This document shows positions 7,256 through 17,562 of a stretch of 24,840 bases of DNA, in pieces. The DNA comes from a virus, in the UHGV virus genome UHGV-0183909. One strand, written 5' to 3'. Both the position numbers and the translations under genes were made by a program. Under the pieces are notes generated by a model, which was given only the letters and a program-made list of their open reading frames with translations, was not told where the DNA came from and made no database searches. Every line of letters begins with the position of its first letter. Position 1 is the stretch's first letter.

Positions 7256-7939
7256 TTATCCAAACTCTATCATTTTAAGAGGTAAGCACCTGATAAGCTT
7301 GCCGAAAATGTATACTTCATTCATTTCATGTTCTTCTATGAAGAACGGCGGATAGTGCTCATTGTCTGATAGGACTGCCAGACGACGACCTTTAACTTTT
7401 TGTAGTCGTTTTACAAAGGTGCTGTCCTCGAAGTTGAACACGTAAACGCCATCGCCGCTAAATTGCTCCACCTTACTATCAATGAAGAGCAGATCCTTAG
7501 GGCACAACGTTGGCATCATACTGTCGCCATCAACGTTGATCATAACGATACCATCCAAGCTTCTCCGGCCAAACAATTCGAAAATCCTTTCTTCTGGTAT
7601 TTCTATCGAGCTGACAATCGTTGGGAACGGTTGATTGATATATCCCGAACCGGCTGACGCATGCACATCCAATTGCTGAATTCTAACCGTCCCGGTAGCA
7701 GGCGCATCACCGCCATTAACGGGTACCCCGTAATCAAGATAAGCAGGGGATACGGCAAGCCTGTCTGCAATTCGAATCATCTTTTCATCTCTTGGTTTTG
7801 CAGTACCAAGAGTATAGCGTCGCGCCATCTCATATGAGACACCACTGAACTCTGACAATTCTTTAACTCCAATTGATTGCTCTTGGAGAGACTTGTTTAG
7901 CCTGTCGGCAAAGTCTTTGTATTTAGCATTTTCCACCAT
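7256..7939 (-). CDS. CI-like prophage repressor (N-terminal HTH, C-terminal LexA/S24-like autoproteolysis domain)
   Basis: HTH-like segment SIGVKELSEFSGVSYEMARRY. C-terminal S24-like features: AGSG before a predicted cleavage region, VDGDSMMP (catalytic Ser motif), VFNFEDSTFVKRL (Lys region). Start could instead be the upstream in-frame ATG at 7975 if the transcript is leaderless. Confidence 0.85.
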   Translation of the reverse strand: MVENAKYKDFADRLNKSLQEQSIGVKELSEFSGVSYEMARRYTLGTAKPRDEKMIRIADRLAVSPAYLDYGVPVNGGDAPATGTVRIQQLDVHASAGSGYINQPFPTIVSSIEIPEERIFELFGRRSLDGIVMINVDGDSMMPTLCPKDLLFIDSKVEQFSGDGVYVFNFEDSTFVKRLQKVKGRRLAVLSDNEHYPPFFIEEHEMNEVYIFGKLIRCLPLKMIEFG

Positions 7940-7987
7940 AAGTAGAAGATTAAGCGCACAAGGCATAGTTGTCATTTCTATTTTAAG

Positions 7988-8023
7988 TTGCTAATAATTG
8001 CTACTATAAGTAGTATTGACGCA
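7988..8023 (+). promoter_or_regulatory. Candidate PR promoter with embedded OR operator
   Basis: -35 TTGCTA (7988-7993), 17-nt spacer, -10 TAGTAT (8011-8016). Operator CTACTATAAGTAG (8001-8013) mirrors the PL arrangement. Confidence 0.55.
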
Positions 8024-8044: not shown

Positions 8045-8311
8045 ATGTCAGACCAACACAAGAATGTCACCGCTAAAGCTGTTAAAGCGGTTGGCTCAAT
8101 CTCTGAAGTGTCCAGAAAATTCGAATTTCAGTCAGTTCAATCAGTTGCGAACTGGATTTCGAAAAACAGAGTCCCTTCAGAAAGGGTGATTCAGTTATGT
8201 CAGTGGGGTGGGTGGACTGTAACGCCACATCAATTACGACCAGATATTTACCCAAATAAACATGATGGATTACCGGTACAGCCAAACAGTACGCAACTTT
8301 TAGTTGATTGA
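8045..8311 (+). CDS. Cro-like repressor (YdaS/Cro-type HTH family)
   Basis: AGGAGA RBS then ATG at 8045. Sequence VKAVGSISEVSRKFEFQSVQSVANWISKNRVPSERV...LRPDIYP resembles the YdaS-type Cro family; divergent from cI across the operator region. Confidence 0.8.
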   Translation: MSDQHKNVTAKAVKAVGSISEVSRKFEFQSVQSVANWISKNRVPSERVIQLCQWGGWTVTPHQLRPDIYPNKHDGLPVQPNSTQLLVD

Positions 8312-8333
8312 TAACTACCAAAGGAAAAACAAG

Positions 8334-8804
8334 ATGGTAGAGCAGACCCTGAAAGAAGTAGTGAAAGCGATGTGCAAAGCATATCCCGGTGGCCGCGAGG
8401 CTATGGCTGGTGCATTGGGCATGTCAGTAACTCAGTTCAATAACAACCTGTATGAGAAAAACGGCTGTCGTTTCTTTGAGGTAACAGAGCTGGAAGCGAT
8501 GGAAGACATTTCCAACACATCGCTGGTGGCTGATTACTTTGCTAAGCGTCGTGGTGCTTTGCTGGTGGACAGGCCACTCCTGGAAGATCTGGACCGCGTT
8601 GATTTATTCAGTCGGGCAATACGTACATCTGCGGCGCGTGGGCAGGTTGACCAAATCATTGAGCAGGCTCTGGAAGATGGGGTGATCGAGCAGCATGAAG
8701 CAGAAGAAATTATGGAACATCACCGCCGCCACCTGGCAGCACGTGAGGAAGAGATTCAGGCAATCATCACTCTTTTCGGACGTAAGAAAAGCCAAAAAAA
8801 GTGA
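8334..8804 (+). CDS. CII-like regulatory protein (YdaT-like)
   Basis: Internal ATG with AAGGA RBS. Position directly after cro and similarity to YdaT-type proteins (GALGMSVTQFNN...). Confidence 0.7.
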   Translation: MVEQTLKEVVKAMCKAYPGGREAMAGALGMSVTQFNNNLYEKNGCRFFEVTELEAMEDISNTSLVADYFAKRRGALLVDRPLLEDLDRVDLFSRAIRTSAARGQVDQIIEQALEDGVIEQHEAEEIMEHHRRHLAAREEEIQAIITLFGRKKSQKK

Positions 8805-8865: not shown

Positions 8866-9204
8866 ATGAACAGTGTAAACCGATTCAGACCAGTTAAGCA
8901 ATTCAGATGCCCACCGCTGGTGGGGCGTGATGCCCCGTTCGGCTATGTGGGAATAGTACGTACAGCGAACGGAAGCCACAACTACCAGTGTGGTTCAGAG
9001 ATGGTAGAGGCGTTTACTCAGATGAATGAGAAGGGGCGTGAGGAGTGGCTGAAGTTGACCGGCGATTCAGAGACCACCGTGGAATCGAAGTCAGGGTTAT
9101 CCGTTGGGAGCCCGAGACCGGACGCGTTATATACCTTCGCCAAGGGTACGATCATGAGTGCTTCAGCCCTCTTGAACAATTCCAGCGTAAGTTTACAGAG
9201 TTAA
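8866..9204 (+). CDS. Hypothetical protein
   Basis: 112-aa ORF between the cII-like and replication genes; no recognisable domain and weak RBS. Confidence 0.4.
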   Translation: MNSVNRFRPVKQFRCPPLVGRDAPFGYVGIVRTANGSHNYQCGSEMVEAFTQMNEKGREEWLKLTGDSETTVESKSGLSVGSPRPDALYTFAKGTIMSASALLNNSSVSLQS

Positions 9205-9213
9205 AGGACGACC

Positions 9214-10098
9214 ATGAGCACTAAATTAACCGGTTACGTTTGGGACGCTTGCGCTTCTTCAGGCATGAAGTTGTCCAGCGTTGCCATCATGGCGCGTCTG
9301 GCAGACTTCAGCAGCGATGAGGGAGTTAGCTGGCCTTCAATTGGCACTATTGCTCGTCAGATTGGCGCTGGTGAAAGCACTGTACGCACAGCGATATCCC
9401 AACTGGAGAAGGATGGCTGGCTTACTCGTAAACAGCGCCGCAATGGCAACCGTAACGCCTCAAACGTGTATCAACTGAATGTCGCGAAGCTTCGTGATGC
9501 AGCTTTCTCTCACCTGTCAGATTCTGACGCATCAAAATCTGATGCATCAAAATCCGACCCGTCAAAATTTGAGGCATCAAAAAACGACGATAACGGCACT
9601 TTTGACCCGTCAGAATCTGGTGGGGATCCGTCAGTAAAATCAAAACCAGAACCATCAGTTAAAAATAAAACCCCTTGTCCGGTTCCTTCGAAACCTGACG
9701 ACGTCGATTCTGATCCTGCTGTTCAGGTTCTTGACCATTTCAACCAGGTCACCGGGTCTGAATACGGTCGTGGTGGTCGTAACAAAACCACGCTGGGATA
9801 CATCCGTGGTCGTCTCGCTGAAGATTACACCGCTGATGATTTGAAACTGGTGGTGGATTATCTCAACGCCAAGTGGGCAGACGATTCGAAGATGAGTGAC
9901 TACCTGCGCCCTAAAACGCTTTTCGGCGCGGAAAATTGCACGGAGTACTTCGAGAAGGCCAAGAAGTGGCGAAAGAGCGGTAGCCCGAAATGTGTCAACG
10001 GGCGCTGGGTCAAAGAGTCTGATCCGGTCCCTGTTACTCGTGAATCCTACGATAACGTTGATTACGCACTGCCTGAGAACGCGGGGTTCCGCCAATGA
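9214..10098 (+). CDS. Replication initiation protein (lambda O-like / DnaD-like: N-terminal winged helix, conserved phage C-terminal domain)
   Basis: 294-aa ORF. N-terminal HTH-like region (SWPSIGTIARQIGAGESTVRTAISQLEKDGWL) and C-terminal region (LGYIRGRLAEDYTADDLKLVVDYLNAKWADD) typical of phage replisome organisers. Origin-like iterons lie in the linker. Confidence 0.8.
   Translation: MSTKLTGYVWDACASSGMKLSSVAIMARLADFSSDEGVSWPSIGTIARQIGAGESTVRTAISQLEKDGWLTRKQRRNGNRNASNVYQLNVAKLRDAAFSHLSDSDASKSDASKSDPSKFEASKNDDNGTFDPSESGGDPSVKSKPEPSVKNKTPCPVPSKPDDVDSDPAVQVLDHFNQVTGSEYGRGGRNKTTLGYIRGRLAEDYTADDLKLVVDYLNAKWADDSKMSDYLRPKTLFGAENCTEYFEKAKKWRKSGSPKCVNGRWVKESDPVPVTRESYDNVDYALPENAGFRQ
9526..9672 (+). 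repeat. Candidate replication origin: four contiguous 15-bp iterons plus three degenerate copies, then an A-rich tract, inside the O-like gene
   Basis: GACGCATCAAAATCT / GATGCATCAAAATCC / GACCCGTCAAAATTT / GAGGCATCAAAAAAC in tandem at 9526-9585; further copies GACCCGTCAGAATCT, GATCCGTCAGTAAAATC, ACCATCAGTTAAAAAT; then GTTAAAAATAAAACC. Confidence 0.6.
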
Positions 10099-10568
10099 GC
10101 ATGCTGAAAGAAGTTCAGGCCTTCCTTGCCAAAAATCCTGGGTCCGGAAGTGCGGAGATTGTGGAGGCGTTCAGCCAGTACAGCGCACGAAGTATTCAAC
10201 GCACAGTGTGCCGACTTTATGACCTGAACCGTGCTACTCGTGAAACCGTTGGTAACCGCTTTGTCTACTCAGCTGATATGCCACTGGATATGGCGAAAGG
10301 GTGCGCTTCTCCTGCAAAAGTCGTTGTTCAACAAATGCCACGACAGGTAGTTACTCATCTCATCGAAAAAGCCGATCACCTTATGAGTCGTGGACTTTAT
10401 CGCCGCGCTGCCACGATGTTCATGGAAGCGTTCGAAGGGGCTGTTCATACCGAAGAGCGAGACTATTGCTTACGCCAGCGTCAGCGCTGCCTAAAGAAAT
10501 GCGCAGTGGACAAAAAGCGGCAGGAGGAATGGTGTCTTGCCGGGAAGTTTTGTGGAGGTGACATGTGA
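10095..10568 (+). CDS. PerC-like putative transcriptional regulator, in the position usually held by a helicase loader
   Basis: Start overlaps the O-like stop (ATGA). Motif SRGLYRRAATMFMEAF resembles the conserved GLWRRAA core of PerC-family activators as I recall it. Confidence 0.55.
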   Translation: MSMLKEVQAFLAKNPGSGSAEIVEAFSQYSARSIQRTVCRLYDLNRATRETVGNRFVYSADMPLDMAKGCASPAKVVVQQMPRQVVTHLIEKADHLMSRGLYRRAATMFMEAFEGAVHTEERDYCLRQRQRCLKKCAVDKKRQEEWCLAGKFCGGDM

Positions 10569-11233
10569 ACTACGAGCTGATTTACGCCGATCCTCCATGG
10601 TCATACGACAACACAGCCAGCAACGGTGCAGCAGAAAACCATTATGGAACGATGAAGCTCATCGACATTAAACGCCTTCCAGTGTGGGAGCTTTCTGCTG
10701 AAAACGCCGTGTTGGCCATGTGGTACACCGGGACGCATACCCGCGAGGCTATAGAGCTGGCGGAAGCATGGGGATTCAAGGTCCGCACGATGAAGGGCTT
10801 CACCTGGGTCAAGTTCAATCCGCTCGCGGAGAAGCACATCAACAAAGCGCTGCAGGCTGGGGGTGTGGAGGACTTTTACGATTTCCTCGACCTGTTGAAC
10901 GTCCAGACCAGGATGAACGGCGGCAACCACACCCGAGCCAATACAGAAGACCTGTTGATCGCCACAAAAGGGAAGGGGTTAGAGCGCCTGAACGCCGGTA
11001 TTAAGCAGGTTGTTTACAGCCCACTCGGTGTACACAGCCAAAAGCCCTGGGAAGTTCGCCACCGCTTAGAGCTACTTTACGGTGATGTATCGCGCATTGA
11101 ATTATTCAGCCGCAACGGTTCGCCAGGCTGGGACCACTGGGGCAATGAAGCGGAAAACCCTTCGGTGTTTATGGCTCCTGGTTATGTCTGTCCGGTTGAT
11201 ATGCAGGATGAGGTGACCAATGCCGGGTATTGA
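10565..11233 (+). CDS. MT-A70 family DNA N6-adenine methyltransferase (orphan, no adjacent restriction enzyme)
   Basis: GTG start overlapping the upstream stop. LIYADPPWSY contains the DPPW catalytic motif near the N-terminus, typical of MT-A70-type enzymes. Confidence 0.85.
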   Translation: MNYELIYADPPWSYDNTASNGAAENHYGTMKLIDIKRLPVWELSAENAVLAMWYTGTHTREAIELAEAWGFKVRTMKGFTWVKFNPLAEKHINKALQAGGVEDFYDFLDLLNVQTRMNGGNHTRANTEDLLIATKGKGLERLNAGIKQVVYSPLGVHSQKPWEVRHRLELLYGDVSRIELFSRNGSPGWDHWGNEAENPSVFMAPGYVCPVDMQDEVTNAGY

Positions 11234-11438
11234 AGAGCGTAACCTCCTGAAGAACATTGCCCGGAAAGTGAATGATGAAATCAGAGCAGAGCGGAAAGCC
11301 AGGCCCAATGAAAGCCCTGACTCGATATCGAGAAGGATCATGAACCGAGAAATGCCGATGGTTAAGTTGATGGGTTTTATGCCGTCCCATCTCTACTTCG
11401 AGATCGGTGTGCTCAATGGCAAATGTAAGGAGCGGTGA
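11220..11438 (+). CDS. Hypothetical small basic protein
   Basis: 72-aa ORF; its start overlaps the methyltransferase 3' end. Confidence 0.5.
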   Translation: MPGIEERNLLKNIARKVNDEIRAERKARPNESPDSISRRIMNREMPMVKLMGFMPSHLYFEIGVLNGKCKER

Positions 11439-11439
11439 G

Positions 11440-11760
11440 ATGGAACAGTTAACAATGCGTCAGGAAGAAGTACTTGGGATTATCGAAAACTACCAGCAGC
11501 GTATGGGGTTTCCGCCAACCGTCTACGAGCTGGCAAATCTGATGGGCTGCACATCCGGCAATGCGGCGGCGATTCAAATCAAGGCTCTGGAGAAGAAGGG
11601 CTATATCTCTGTCGCTCGCGGCGCAGCCAGGGGGATCACCATTCTGCGGGAGAGTCAGGAGCCTGATGCTGTAAGCATCGTTCGGGCGCTGCTGGTGGGC
11701 GATGCTGACGCGCGTCAGAAAGCAGTCTCCTGGCTGGAATCAAAAGGGGTAACGATTTGA
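11440..11760 (+). CDS. LexA N-terminal DNA-binding-domain-like protein lacking the S24 peptidase domain
   Basis: AAGGAG RBS 8 nt upstream of the ATG. LTMRQEEVLGIIENYQQRMGFPPTVYELANLMGCTSGNAAAIQIKALEKKGYISVARGAARGITIL aligns by eye with the LexA winged-helix DBD (LTARQQEV...[32 protein letters not shown]...SRGIRLL). Only about 40 residues follow and there is no Ser-Lys dyad region. Confidence 0.7.
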   Translation: MEQLTMRQEEVLGIIENYQQRMGFPPTVYELANLMGCTSGNAAAIQIKALEKKGYISVARGAARGITILRESQEPDAVSIVRALLVGDADARQKAVSWLESKGVTI

Positions 11761-12155
11761 AACTGACACTCCCGTTTCCCCCAACGGTCAATTCCTACTA
11801 CCGCGCCCCTGATAAGGGCGCTTTGAAGGGTAAGCACCTGATCAGCGAGGCAGGCCGTAAATTCAAGAAGAACGTCTATGCCGCAGTGGTGACGCAGTAT
11901 GGCGGTATACCAAAGCCGGTAACTATTGACGTTGAGGTGAACATTACGCTTTACCCGCCAGACAGACGCCGCCGCGACCTGGACAACTACAACAAGGCGC
12001 TCTTTGACGCACTGACCAACGCCAGAGTGTGGGCTGATGATAGCCAGGTTAAGCGCATGCAAATTGAATGGGGGCATGTGGTGAAGCAGGGGAAGGTTGA
12101 TATGACCATCTCAAAATATCAACGGGATGGAGACTGTTGCCATGCTTCCTCCTAA
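11757..12155 (+). CDS. rusA: RusA-family Holliday junction resolvase
   Basis: TTG start overlapping the upstream stop. Motifs LPFPPTVNSYY and PDRRRRDLDNYNKALFDALTNARVWADDSQV match the RusA family. Confidence 0.85.
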   Translation: MKLTLPFPPTVNSYYRAPDKGALKGKHLISEAGRKFKKNVYAAVVTQYGGIPKPVTIDVEVNITLYPPDRRRRDLDNYNKALFDALTNARVWADDSQVKRMQIEWGHVVKQGKVDMTISKYQRDGDCCHASS

Positions 12156-12231
12156 AAATGAGTGTATTGTAAGCAAGTGCCAGCGAACCGGGAGTGCAGT
12201 CCCGCTCGCATTACAACAAGTGGAGAGGCCA

Positions 12232-12843
12232 ATGGATCAGTTATTCGTAATTGATGGCGTTTCTGTACGCCAGTATTTTGAATCTAACTATTGCCTGAAT
12301 GACCTTCAGAAAGCAGCCATTAACGCTAGTGGTGAAACTCGCTCATCACGATCGATGGAGGTTTACGAGTTCATGCGCTGCCCTGAAACGCAGGCGCTTG
12401 TAGAATTGCTCGAAAAAGAAACTACGGGAAATTCCCGTAGTATCCCGGTAATGACTATCCAGGGACGTAATGGCGGTACTTACGTTTGCAAAGAACTGGT
12501 TTACGCATACGCGATGTGGATCAGCCCTGCGTTTAATCTCAAAGTAATCCGGACATTTGACGCCCTTCAAAACCCAACTTCGGAAAGCATCACATCAGAC
12601 AAAATTCAGGCTGGCGTGATCCTGCTTGAATCAGCGGCTAAAATGCTGAACCTCTCAAACTCTTCAAGACTTGGTGCGTACCAGAAGCTTCAGCAAGTAG
12701 CAGGACTCCCTGATTTATGCCGCACTACGCCATTGATGCCCCTGCTGGTGCGCCAGACGGTTCAAGCCGTCCAACTCAATCCCTTAGCGCTTTACTCAAA
12801 GCCAACAATCTTCGCATCACGGCTAATCAGGTCTACCACATGA
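12232..12843 (+). CDS. KilA-N domain protein (antirepressor-like); 3' end ambiguous because of a frame overlap
   Basis: GGAGAG RBS then ATG at 12232. MDQLFVIDGVSVRQYFESNYCLNDLQKA...KELVYAYAMWISPAFNLKVIRTFD resembles the KilA-N fold. Confidence 0.7.
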   Translation: MDQLFVIDGVSVRQYFESNYCLNDLQKAAINASGETRSSRSMEVYEFMRCPETQALVELLEKETTGNSRSIPVMTIQGRNGGTYVCKELVYAYAMWISPAFNLKVIRTFDALQNPTSESITSDKIQAGVILLESAAKMLNLSNSSRLGAYQKLQQVAGLPDLCRTTPLMPLLVRQTVQAVQLNPLALYSKPTIFASRLIRSTT

Positions 12844-13046
12844 TGTCCAGACAGGGCATCGTTGAGCAAAAAGAGCGCCGCAGCCGTTCCGGTGTTAATG
12901 GCGTGAAGAAGTTCTGGTCTCTCACTGCCAAGGGTTGCCTGTACGGGAAGAACATCACCAGCCCGGCAAACCCACGCGAAACACAGCCGCATTTCTTCGA
13001 ATCGAAGTTTGCGGAGTTGATGAAAATTATCGATCTCGTTGGCTGA
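12840..13046 (+). CDS. Small ORF, either coupled to the KilA-N gene (ATGA overlap) or the displaced C-terminal part of a frameshifted KilA-N gene
   Basis: A second protein-like frame is open from 12714 to 13046 and overlaps the 3' end of the KilA-N ORF; an in-frame ATG at 12840 overlaps the KilA-N stop. Confidence 0.35.
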   Translation: MMSRQGIVEQKERRSRSGVNGVKKFWSLTAKGCLYGKNITSPANPRETQPHFFESKFAELMKIIDLVG

Positions 13047-13053
13047 GGTGTAA

Positions 13054-14043
13054 GTGAGAGCTCTGTTAACGCCGGAAGTTGCTAATGGGCTGGGTATCGT
13101 ATTGTTCCGTCCCGGTCCTGACCTGATGTACCTGTTCAAACGTGGGCGCGTACTGATTGAAGAAGAGCCGGAGAACTACGCCACCTTTCCAACAGGGGCA
13201 ATCCCTCCCGCATCTCAACCACTGGCAGAAGAGCCAATGATGAAGGCCGTGTTTGAGAATAAGAAGGTGATAGCGCGTGCTGGTGGGCTTGTTTCACTCG
13301 ACAGGTGGTTAGAGAGTTCATTCGTCTGTCAGTGGCCCCACAACGACTATCACAGCCCGCATTTTACGCTGTTTCGCCATTATCCAGGCTCAATCAGATT
13401 GTGCTGGGCATGTGATAACCAATTACGTGATCAGACCACGGAAAGACTGGCAGGCATAGCGCGTGAAAACCTGGTATCCTGGATTTTATCTGTAGTGCTT
13501 CGTGAGCTGGGTTTCAGTGATGACCACCAGCTTACTCTTCCTGAGTTTTGCTGGTGGATGGTGCGAAGTGGCCTGGCTGATGTCATCCCTGAAGGGATAG
13601 CGACTAAAGCCATGGGAATGAAGCCAGAAGAGCATCAGTCAGTGATGCGGGAGAGTGACATTGTTCCGCGTCCGGCAGCGACGGAAGTACTGCAGGAAAG
13701 GGCGAAAAAGGTACTGACGATAAAGGTTGATGACGAATCGCCGGAATCTTTCATGCTGAGGCCTAAGCGCCGTCGCTGGGAAAATGAGAAGTACACGCGC
13801 TGGGTTAAAGCACAGCCGTGCGCCTGCTGTAACAAGCAGGCAGATGACCCCCATCACCTGATAGGCCACGGTCAGGGTGGAATGGGTACAAAAGCGCATG
13901 ATCTCTTTGTGTTGCCGTTGTGCAGGCTGCATCACCGGGAGCTTCATGATGACACCGTGGCATTTGAGAAGAAATACGGCTCACAACTGGAGCTGATATT
14001 TCGTTTTATCGATCGTGCGCTGGCAACCGGCGTACTGGCGTAA
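13054..14043 (+). CDS. DUF968 (YdfU-like) protein with a C-terminal Cys/His-rich motif
   Basis: 329-aa ORF with GTG start. C-terminus CACCNKQADDPHHLIGHG...LCRLHHRELHDD. Sits directly upstream of the Q-like gene, as ydfU does in the Qin prophage. Confidence 0.75.
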   Translation: MRALLTPEVANGLGIVLFRPGPDLMYLFKRGRVLIEEEPENYATFPTGAIPPASQPLAEEPMMKAVFENKKVIARAGGLVSLDRWLESSFVCQWPHNDYHSPHFTLFRHYPGSIRLCWACDNQLRDQTTERLAGIARENLVSWILSVVLRELGFSDDHQLTLPEFCWWMVRSGLADVIPEGIATKAMGMKPEEHQSVMRESDIVPRPAATEVLQERAKKVLTIKVDDESPESFMLRPKRRRWENEKYTRWVKAQPCACCNKQADDPHHLIGHGQGGMGTKAHDLFVLPLCRLHHRELHDDTVAFEKKYGSQLELIFRFIDRALATGVLA

Positions 14044-14055
14044 GTGGAGAACGCT

Positions 14056-14889
14056 ATGAACCTTGAAGCCCTACCAAAATTTTATTCACCAAAATCGCCA
14101 AAGTTGAGTGATGACGCGCCAGCAACCAGCAATGATGCATTGTCTGTGACTGATGTGATGGCTGCACAGGGGATGACACAGAACCGCGCATCATTTGGCT
14201 TTTCTGCGTTCCTGGGGAAGTTGGGGATCAGCATCACTGAAAAAGAAAAGGCTATCGCGCTTCTTTCTAATTATGCCCTTGCTCGCTGCGACAGAGTCCC
14301 GGCGCTTCGAAAATTGAGCGCTGAAATCAAGCCAAAAGTAATTCGCATTCTCGCTGTTTATGCATTCGAGGATTATTCTCGAAGTGCAAGCACTACACGA
14401 ATCTGTGACTGCTGTAATGGTGAAGGGTTTATTGATGCCGAAGTCTTCAGCATGAAAACCCACACACCAGGCAAGAATAAAGAATTTGTCAAAATGTCAC
14501 TGCATATGGGCGTAAAAGATATCAAGCCATCAGCATATGAGGTGCGCAGACAAGTGAGAGAAATAAACCGCGTTCTGTGCCATCAGTGCAAAGGGAAGAA
14601 AGTAGTTAGTTCCTCATGCAACGATTGCCATGGTCGCGGTAAGGCCGTAAACCGCGAATTAACTGCAAAGCAGGGAGTACCGGTATTCACCGACTGTAAA
14701 CGATGCGGTGGTAATGGCTATGCAAGAATGCCGTCAACGGAAGCACTGGAAGCAATACGCCTTGTTACTGATGCCATTTCTCTCGATACATGGAAAAAGT
14801 CTGTGAAGAAGTTCTATGACGATCTCATTGAAAAGTTCGAAGTAGAAGAGGCATGGGCTGAAGAGCAATTGCGGCGGGTAACAAAATAA
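14056..14889 (+). CDS. Late-gene antitermination protein Q (lambdoid Q family with zinc-binding Cys clusters)
   Basis: GGAGAA RBS then ATG at 14056. Cys clusters CDCCNGEG, CHQCKGKK, CNDCHGRGK, CKRCGGNG. Last gene before the tandem terminators and the lysis cassette. Confidence 0.75.
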   Translation: MNLEALPKFYSPKSPKLSDDAPATSNDALSVTDVMAAQGMTQNRASFGFSAFLGKLGISITEKEKAIALLSNYALARCDRVPALRKLSAEIKPKVIRILAVYAFEDYSRSASTTRICDCCNGEGFIDAEVFSMKTHTPGKNKEFVKMSLHMGVKDIKPSAYEVRRQVREINRVLCHQCKGKKVVSSSCNDCHGRGKAVNRELTAKQGVPVFTDCKRCGGNGYARMPSTEALEAIRLVTDAISLDTWKKSVKKFYDDLIEKFEVEEAWAEEQLRRVTK

Positions 14890-17308: not shown

Positions 17309-17562
17309 GCATTACAGCAGGCATTCACTGAGTGCCTGTGATAATGTCGAATTGTGGTAAATGCGCAGGCTGATGCGCAGCGCGTGGATGTGAAGCGAAG
17401 CAAGTCGTGCCGTTGGTTCCCTGCTAAGCGCCAACGGAATTCCGGGTTCAGCACCGGATACCACACCTAATTGAATTGTCAGTGGCTAGGGTAGCTCCTG
17501 AAAAGCGGCATCGTCACCGCCTGCCACTGATAACCTGACGAACAACTAAGACGAGGTTGTAG

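Follow-up and report, generated by a model that had tools for sequence, protein, structure and literature searches.

Gene content of the locus

We analyzed the 24,840-nt virus genome UHGV-0183909 (hereafter the window, meaning the whole stretch at its full length), focusing on a 106-amino-acid (aa) open reading frame (ORF) on its plus strand that encodes a LexA-like protein. The window is a lambdoid prophage, with a tRNA-Ser and an integrase gene at its left end and lysis and head genes after the antiterminator gene Q. Located between cro and Q, the LexA-like gene encodes the DNA-binding domain of LexA without its protease, joined to a conserved tail that LexA does not share. We tentatively read the product as a lytic-phase regulator that is insensitive to RecA, is probably dimeric and acts on an operator of its own.

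The ORF starts at an ATG (11440) and ends at a TGA (11758-11760), and the 72-aa ORF before it terminates (TGA, 11436-11438) between this ATG and its Shine-Dalgarno sequence (Table 1). A longer version starting at GTG 11407 was considered, but it is unsupported, as homologs are 105–109 aa long and begin with MEQLT or MxxLT. The best protein match, a 'LexA family transcriptional regulator' from Pseudocitrobacter faecalis, is 94% identical. The frame is a real gene, far beyond chance, and it is conserved in hundreds of prophages.

Table 1 Features of the LexA-like gene and of the surrounding cro-to-Q region, in window coordinates.
Feature	Position	Strand	Evidence or remark
LexA-N-terminal-domain-only protein gene (106 aa)	11440-11760	+	Pfam, PHROG 362, 1lea match
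Shine-Dalgarno sequence AAGGAG, 7 nt 5' of the ATG	11427-11432	+	Read from sequence
LexA-type winged helix-turn-helix, residues 1-68	11440-11643	+	PF01726, AlphaFold2 secondary structure, 3jso superposition
Recognition helix SGNAAAIQIKALEK, residues 39-52	11554-11595	+	Alignments
Family-specific C-terminal tail, residues 76-106	11665-11757	+	AlphaFold2, column conservation; proposed dimerization or partner surface
CI repressor with S24 domain	7256-7975	-	
pR-like promoter, TTGTCA-18 nt-AATAAT	7969-7998	+	Promoter scan
CP76-type cII	8304-8804		
Replication gene	9214-10098		
PerC-like activator	10095-10568		
MT-A70-family DNA methyltransferase	10565-11233	+	Pfam MT-A70; PADLOC MTase_II
72-aa ORF (PHROG 303, unknown function) between the methyltransferase and LexA-like genes	11220-11438	+	
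rusA, Holliday-junction resolvase, TTG start	11757-12155	+	Pfam RusA, E = 1.2e-15
KilA-N/antirepressor-like gene, 76-nt gap after rusA, frameshift-split	12232-13046	+	PHROG 129
DUF968/HNH gene	13054-14043	+	Pfam DUF968; part of conserved module
Antiterminator Q gene, end of conserved module	14044-14889	+	Pfam Antiterm

A LexA-type winged helix without the LexA protease

From the sequence alone, a preliminary description had aligned the first ~70 residues of the product with the N-terminal winged-helix domain of LexA, and three comparisons agree. First, residues 1-65 match positions 1-65 of the 65 in the Pfam model PF01726 (LexA_DNA_bind) with 69.3 bits (cutoff 23.7, E = 2.5e-19), and the remaining winged-helix families in Pfam score under their cutoffs. 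Second, phmmer against the PDB ranks 1lea, the DNA-binding domain of E. coli LexA, first (E = 2.1e-14), with an ungapped alignment over residues 1-74. Third, residues 1-68 of an AlphaFold2 model, built from 59 family sequences (predicted local distance difference test (pLDDT) 90), superimpose on DNA-bound E. coli LexA (3jso) with a root-mean-square deviation (rmsd) of 0.6 A at 44% identity. The modeled winged helix consists of helices 6-22, 28-34 and 40-52 and a beta wing formed by residues 56-58 and 66-68. Within it, NAAAIQIKALEKKG pairs with the helix region of LexA to which it had been assigned.

The missing parts of LexA, which the preliminary description had given as the cleavage site and the domain with the Ser/Lys dyad, are indeed absent. 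The protein stops at residue 106 and has no Pfam match to a Peptidase_S24 domain, which in LexA carries the Ser119/Lys156 dyad and also serves for dimerization; the LexA DNA-binding domain thus stands alone. The scissile Ala-Gly (or Cys-Gly) bond is absent as well: Val86-Gly87 aligns with Ala84-Gly85 of LexA, and across the family residue 87 is G, D, E or R, leaving the position of the cleavage site unconserved. Against the NCBIfam equivalog for lexA (TIGR00498), the protein scores 70.9 bits, below the cutoff of 110.95, and only positions 1-90 of 203 are matched. By its lack of a cleavage site and of an S24 domain and by its equivalog score, the protein is not LexA. Because both the cleavage site and the S24 domain are absent, it should be insensitive to RecA-stimulated self-cleavage.

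A conserved C-terminal tail

The preliminary description had overlooked a conserved helical tail at the C-terminus. In the AlphaFold2 model, the tail is a two-helix hairpin (residues 76-86 and 91-101, block pLDDT 93–94), connected to the winged helix by a linker of lower confidence (69-75). Throughout the family, the last 31 residues follow the motif AVxIIRxLLxGxxxARxRAxxWLxxxG. Ala95 is invariant, Ala77, Ala91 and Leu99 occur in at least 90% of sequences, and 11 of 26 tail positions (77, 78, 80, 81, 84, 85, 91, 95, 96, 98 and 99) are conserved as hydrophobic residues or Ala. As this is more than a free hairpin could bury, the tail is predicted to serve as an interface, most simply in a homodimeric four-helix bundle. 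A profile of the tail alone found nothing significant among PDB sequences.

Just after the wing, IVRALLVGD aligns weakly with LVGRVAAGE from the cleavage-site region of LexA. This faint alignment would fit an origin in which a captured lexA was truncated just past that region. However, the gene is not a broken lexA: family members have a constant length (105–135 aa), the match to PHROG 362 spans the whole protein and the tail has been conserved.

An abundant family in enterobacterial prophages

The protein belongs to PHROG 362 ('transcriptional repressor'), with residues 1-105 matching profile positions 1-105 of 106 (E = 7.7e-40). A profile search recovered at least 990 protein clusters (90% identity) at E values of 1e-8 or lower. 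Among the best 120 of these 990 clusters, almost all members are 103–135 aa long with PF01726 as their main or only Pfam domain, and the named genera are Escherichia, Klebsiella, Raoultella, Salmonella, Citrobacter, Cronobacter, Atlantibacter, Enterobacter and Buttiauxella. The existing labels are 'LexA family transcriptional regulator' (RefSeq), 'LexA family protein' and 'DNA-binding protein', and in lambdoid prophages also 'LexA DNA binding domain protein'.

The family is equally visible in deposited phages, where 63 records contain a homolog 43–59% identical to the LexA-like protein, including SfV (orf42), SfII, cdtI, mEp460, mEp390 and Stx2a and Stx2c phages. Of 5426 complete E. coli genomes, 2233 (41%) carry a gene of the SfV orf42 type at 90% or higher nucleotide identity, with up to 4 copies per genome, and the SfV type is encoded in at least 595 IMG/VR stretches. 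A scan of genome contigs with the single LexA-like protein returned one locus, and the IMG/VR contig UViG_3300014922_000105 is the same phage as the window (99.995% identity over 20.3 kb). LexA DNA-binding domains that stand alone in proteins of 65–150 aa are frequent in unrelated viruses too.

We found no experimental study of the enterobacterial PHROG 362/SfV orf42 family in the searchable literature, and no PADLOC defence model matched the LexA-like protein at E = 0.01 or better. The family is thus abundant and already annotated, its function is unstudied and the LexA-like protein is an additional member. What changes is the annotation: members are neither LexA nor fragments of it, but a distinct two-part family.

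A packed operon probably read from pR

The genes from cro, which follows the pR-like promoter, to Q lie on one strand with gaps of at most 76 nt. In a promoter scan, pR was the sole sigma-70-like plus-strand site upstream of this string, and the LexA-like gene has no promoter-like site of its own. Considering the tight packing and this single promoter-like site, we infer delayed-early lytic expression, and the LexA-like gene is unlikely to be made in a quiescent lysogen.

Downstream, the start of rusA overlaps the LexA-like stop codon by 4 nt (TTGA), and this placement just before rusA in a nin-like region, which the preliminary description had noted, recurs widely. Across 160 related loci from two clades ~45% identical to each other, the 4-nt downstream overlap is found in 157 and RusA is encoded downstream in 154, and SfV, mEp390, Atlantibacter, Salmonella, Buttiauxella and Cronobacter also show the arrangement. 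Very different phages share the module order of methyltransferase, LexA-like gene, rusA, KilA-N/ANT/Rha, DUF968 and Q. The 72-aa ORF upstream of the LexA-like gene is a 'hypothetical protein' in E. coli F467.

While the methyltransferase slot upstream is conserved, the gene filling it is not. In the window (W), L008, L161, L162, L163, L165 and SfV, the slot is nearly always filled by a DNA methyltransferase, but the families are non-homologous: MT-A70, two kinds of Dam (PF05869 and D12), and C5 enzymes or their C5+D12 fusions of up to 846 aa.

A Klebsiella/Raoultella clade departs from this layout. Its LexA-like protein is 130 aa long, with more than 1000 member sequences in one cluster, and the clade lacks rusA; mEp390 and Klebsiella lack the methyltransferase. 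In the Klebsiella loci L004-L007 (3385-5624), a perfect SOS box (TACTGTTTATTTATACAGTA) is followed by dinI, orf85, the LexA-like gene, orf67, DUF968 and a 200-aa ORF, and then by lysis genes. This element is very abundant and has no replication genes upstream. Judging from this order, the Klebsiella LexA-like gene is probably co-transcribed with dinI from the SOS-box promoter and thereby SOS-induced, and a LexA-controlled operon holding a LexA look-alike could form a feedback loop.

A variable recognition helix

PMC13416735, citing Knegtel et al (1995), gives Ser39, Asn41, Ala42, Glu44 and Glu45 as DNA contacts of LexA. Three of the five (Ser39, Asn41 and Ala42) are kept in the LexA-like protein, which has Ala, Ile and Gln where LexA has Glu44, Glu45 and His46, so that the recognition helix reads SGNAAAIQI in the window and SPNAAEEHL in the host. 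The family alignment shows no variation at Ser39, Asn41 or Arg64, and at least 90% of sequences have Ala42 and Gly65. Given this conservation, the family very likely reads DNA.

Variation is concentrated at positions 40 and 43-46, where the family shows SPNAAAEHL, SPNAANDHL, SVNAAADML, SPNAATDML, SSNAVLLHL, SGNTAAGHV, SVNAAVEHL and SGNAAAIQI. The host helix itself, SPNAAEEHL, occurs in no family member examined, and SPNAAAEHL, which many members carry, is one residue from it. The helix of the window is a minority type that it shares with the near-identical IMG/VR contig; the close variants AIH and ALH occur in Pseudocitrobacter and one E. coli. Even within one host species the phages differ in their helix, with E. 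coli alone hosting the ALH and VEH types. The family's hosts all share the same SOS box. As a pure mimic of LexA should stay tied to the host helix, this diversification would fit private operators better, and the helix of the LexA-like protein argues against simple SOS-box mimicry.

SOS boxes and candidate operators

An exact SOS box is absent from the 24.8-kb window, where one-mismatch matches number 10 against 8.8 expected, and a relaxed scan allowing AT-rich spacers returned a single poor site (23624). Among relatives, SOS boxes lie within 1.5 kb downstream at 13 of 36 loci in one clade, at 1 of 80 in another clade with E45/H46 and at none of 30 in a third, and several of these boxes fall inside coding sequence of cI or of a methyltransferase gene. 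SOS boxes in relatives do not consistently track the LexA-like helices or the family.

In L098 (7094-7113), as in ~25 further loci of the SfV type, the CI repressor coding sequence contains a near-consensus SOS box (TACTGTTTTTATATACAGTA) where the linker reads ...NTVYKNSN.... A second box-like sequence overlaps the start (MKNTVKINSV) of the frame for a 350-aa DNA methyltransferase, which is encoded between Q and the holin gene.

Other, convincing boxes stand ~100 nt before the KilA-N gene, which itself comes after rusA: AACTGTTCAAACATACAGGT in L014, L023 and L032 (about 10279-10685) and TACTGTATTTATGAACAGTG in L147 (10765). Their placement suggests LexA-controlled antirepressor-like genes of the Gifsy type. 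The KilA-N gene of the window is without this box-bearing upstream segment, as its homology with L147 begins at GGGAGTGCAG. For the same reason, 12158-12177 (GAGTGTATTGTAAGCAAGTG) was rejected as the counterpart of the L147 box, with intergenic homology starting only at GGGAGTGCAG.

Three elements were considered as operators of the LexA-like protein and rejected. First, CTACCA-N14-TGGTAG is the only recurrent element, but it is absent from SfV-type phages that have the family. Second, TGGT-N8-ACCA has three sites, all in coding sequence, a number reached in 3 of 200 shuffles and so expected by chance over 80 tests. Third, the non-coding island shared among the closest relatives compared (7006-7092) contains a terminator-like hairpin and a T-run.

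The first and third of these elements have features of their own. The two window copies of CTACCA-N14-TGGTAG (8315-8340 and 8982-9007) flank the CP76-type cII gene, and both span a start codon (ATGGTAGAG). The element also occurs in L001, L003, L008, L010, L164 and L165 with conserved arms and a spacer length of 14, and the spacer sequence of the second copy varies between phages. It looks like a candidate protein-binding site or a hairpin that could sequester the start codon. Within the non-coding island, 7031-7064 is a perfect 11-nt inverted repeat (ATGGCTGTCAC-N12-GTGACAGCCAT) followed by a T-run on the minus strand and situated downstream of the pL/OL region. Conservation reaches 85% in E. 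coli F467, although the immunity region there is a different one, and the repeat is probably an early-left terminator.

Other features of the window

The KilA-N gene is split in the window, with positions 2-188 of PHROG 129 matched by an ORF at 12232-12843 and positions 164-267 by another at 12717-13046, while the L147 homolog is an intact ORF of 275 aa. The split gene is either a pseudogene or the result of an assembly error. Just upstream of the KilA-N Shine-Dalgarno sequence, 12189-12204 forms a hairpin or palindrome (CGGGAgTGCAgTCCCG) with no T-run after it, and no Rfam family reached its gathering score there. The hairpin recurs in L161 and L162 (about 5790), L164 (about 5690), L008 (about 5360) and L165 (about 5790), with compensatory changes in the outer stem (GGCGGtTGCAgCCGCC, GCGGGCgTGCAgGCCCC, CCGGGgcgtgTGCAgcgtaCCCGG) and the central TGCA kept.

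Three tRNA features were found. A tRNA-Ser(CGA) gene (1047-1136, +), probably the attachment site, adjoins the integrase gene (1252-2241, -); a tRNA-Arg(UCU) gene (6868-6943, -) lies inside the early-left prophage region; and a partial tRNA occupies the window edge (1-55, -). In addition, the Rfam family int-alpA RNA matches 17479-17541 (+) with 41.8 bits (gathering score 35.8), within a ~900-nt gap after the lysis genes that contains no long ORF.

Possible functions of the LexA-like protein

The reading we favour, tentatively, is that of a RecA-insensitive regulator of the lytic phase that derives from LexA, is probably dimeric and uses a private, diverged operator. In this scenario, a proteobacterial LexA would have kept its winged-helix domain, lost the cleavage site together with the S24 protease and dimerization domain, and gained the two-helix tail. 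After induction or infection, the gene would be transcribed from pR as a delayed-early gene along with the replication, methyltransferase, rusA and Q genes, and its product would resist inactivation by RecA-stimulated self-cleavage. The protein may pair through its hydrophobic tail, through wing contacts on DNA or through both, and would bind a palindromic operator that is akin to the host SOS box but has diverged from it. The protein would then be a phage-specific regulator of transcription and not a general replacement for host LexA. Considering its LexA ancestry, occupancy or repression is the likelier mode of action.

Several points weigh against this reading. No search of the window or of the related loci produced a candidate operator for the LexA-like protein: the window contains no repeated palindromes tied to it, none of the NNGT-N6-10-ACNN classes was enriched beyond chance when compared with shuffles (80 tests), and a search of 149 loci for palindromes specific to helix clades returned only lineage-linked coding sequence. 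The structure prediction covers the monomer. Members with a nearly LexA-like helix (SPNAAAEHL), and perhaps the window protein, may possibly bind canonical SOS boxes, and the near-universal 4-nt coupling to rusA could mean a role in DNA metabolism.

The next reading is that of an uncleavable mimic, which binds the CTGT-N8-ACAG boxes of the host and of co-resident prophages and represses the SOS regulon anew, or damps it, while RecA is active; given the position of the gene in the operon, it would do so during lytic growth rather than in the lysogen. The close fit to DNA-bound LexA (44% identity, 0.6 A), the conservation of Ser39, Asn41, Ala42, Arg64 and Gly65 and the many members one residue away from the host helix all favour such a protein, as do the SOS boxes before the KilA-N gene in some relatives and the Klebsiella clade, where the gene stands behind a perfect SOS box together with dinI. 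DinI is itself an SOS damper. An isolated LexA N-terminal domain is also said to bind operators, if weakly. However, the Glu44 and Glu45 contacts are lost (Ala44, Ile45 and Gln46 stand in their place), no member examined has the host helix and the helix varies within a host species. In addition, near-matches to the SOS box in the window are at chance level with no exact box among them, the boxes of relatives do not track the family and several lie within coding sequence, and the LexA-like gene lacks its own promoter. We regard the mimic as plausible but unlikely. The occupancy of SOS boxes and competition with host LexA proposed in the preliminary description are, on these grounds and considering the precedent of the phage protein gp6 discussed below, weaker than it implied, whereas the underlying domain assignment stands.

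A related and somewhat more doubtful proposal is that the family provides a widespread, RecA-proof surrogate LexA, acting as a phage-imposed off-switch for the SOS response and as a tool of competition between prophages. After prophage induction (in Klebsiella, the firing of the SOS-box/dinI promoter), SOS-type operators would be re-occupied, shutting down host SOS functions as well as the LexA-controlled antirepressors, colicins and defences of competitors, and the helix variants would define different sets of targets.

Two further readings are improbable. The protein could be an activator like gp6 that binds a phage promoter (for example that of KilA-N, or a late or lysis-region promoter), recruits RNA polymerase and thereby times lytic genes. 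The gp6 precedent at the late promoter P3 favours this, as do the homology between the two proteins (33% identity, E = 2e-9) and the fact that both are early genes. On the other hand, the window has a Q antiterminator for its late genes, so that such a role is not obviously needed; the gp6 operator is absent, Lys38 of gp6 is replaced by Asn41, gp6 lacks the tail, and no conserved site was found upstream of promoters.

Comparably improbable is a non-transcriptional, DNA-binding accessory that guides or restrains RusA, the DUF968/HNH protein or the methyltransferase at particular DNA sites, with the tail as a protein-protein interface. This would account for the rusA overlap (157/160) and the RusA gene downstream (154/160), for a methyltransferase that is usually immediately upstream despite its changes of family (MT-A70, Dam D12, PF05869, C5) and for DUF968/HNH, which never lies more than two genes downstream, not even in the Klebsiella clade without rusA. 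However, 4-nt overlaps are the rule across compact nin regions, the Klebsiella clade does without rusA, and mEp390 and Klebsiella do without the methyltransferase. The LexA-type recognition helix, in which Ser39 and Asn41 never vary, speaks for a base-specific reader instead, and we know of no precedent for an accessory of this kind.

Finally, a decaying, functionless fragment of a captured lexA, with which the weak IVRALLVGD/LVGRVAAGE alignment is consistent as a trace of truncation, is most improbable and already contradicted by conservation, given at least 990 clusters of constant length with a conserved tail, a good Shine-Dalgarno sequence, conserved synteny and presence in 41% of complete E. 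coli genomes.

In enterobacterial lambdoid prophages, Stx- and serotype-converting ones among them, few accessory regulators are as common as LexA DNA-binding domains that stand alone. If these proteins bind SOS-type operators, they would alter the response of lysogens to DNA-damaging antibiotics and the competition after induction among co-resident prophages, including Shiga-toxin phages. If they read private operators, they would represent a second, unrecognized layer of lytic-phase regulation and a set of naturally occurring specificity variants built on the LexA scaffold.

Comparison with known systems

The LexA-like protein resembles LexA (TIGR00498; 1lea, 3jso) in keeping Ser39, Asn41, Ala42, Arg64 and Gly65. 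It differs in its unrelated helical tail and in being encoded in a lytic operon, whereas LexA is the product of an autoregulated SOS gene. The LexA(1-84) cleavage fragment consists of the same domain without the C-terminal domain, and the phage protein could be modeled on it as a stable version. LexA(1-84) ends in a ClpXP degron and is quickly removed, whereas the phage protein ends in ...KGVTI and has an additional tail that is predicted to fold. Kim and Little are said to have found in 1992 that the N-terminal domain of LexA, when isolated, has weak affinity for operators and dimerizes on DNA, and Neher et al. reportedly showed in 2003 that ClpXP removes the cleaved N-terminal fragment, as its repressor activity persists. 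Cleavage of LexA lowers its affinity for DNA and exposes degradation signals for ClpXP and Lon (PMC3159453).

With the PHROG 362/SfV orf42 family, the protein shares its length, its two-part architecture and its place between the methyltransferase gene and rusA; compared with the members in deposited phages, it is only 43–59% identical and has the minority helix SGNAAAIQI. Repressors of the BlaI/MecI and Rrf2 types also combine a winged helix with C-terminal helices that form a dimer interface, and they appear as weak Foldseek matches. With an rmsd of 5–10 A and no sequence relationship, they are an analogy and not a sign of membership.

A further comparison is with gp6 of the Betatectivirus GIL01, a truncated LexA homolog of 66 aa that binds the palindrome GaCACAnnTGTGaC and not LexA boxes (PMC6182141); we found no other experimentally studied truncated LexA homolog of a phage in the searchable literature. 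The gp6 site is centred at -43.5 and overlaps the -35 element of the late promoter P3, which gp6 activates, while host LexA together with gp7 represses P3 (PMC6182141). Lys38 in the gp6 recognition helix is essential for binding (PMC6182141), and it aligns with Asn41 of the LexA-like protein in a BLASTP alignment over 66 residues. Allowing up to two mismatches, no match to GaCACAnnTGTGaC was found in the window. Both proteins are LexA DNA-binding domains without a protease, encoded by early phage genes. They differ in that gp6 has no tail and comes from a phage of a Gram-positive host without a Q-type antiterminator, whereas the window phage has Q. By analogy, the gp6 precedent shows that truncated LexAs can evolve a specificity of their own, and even the opposite direction of regulation.

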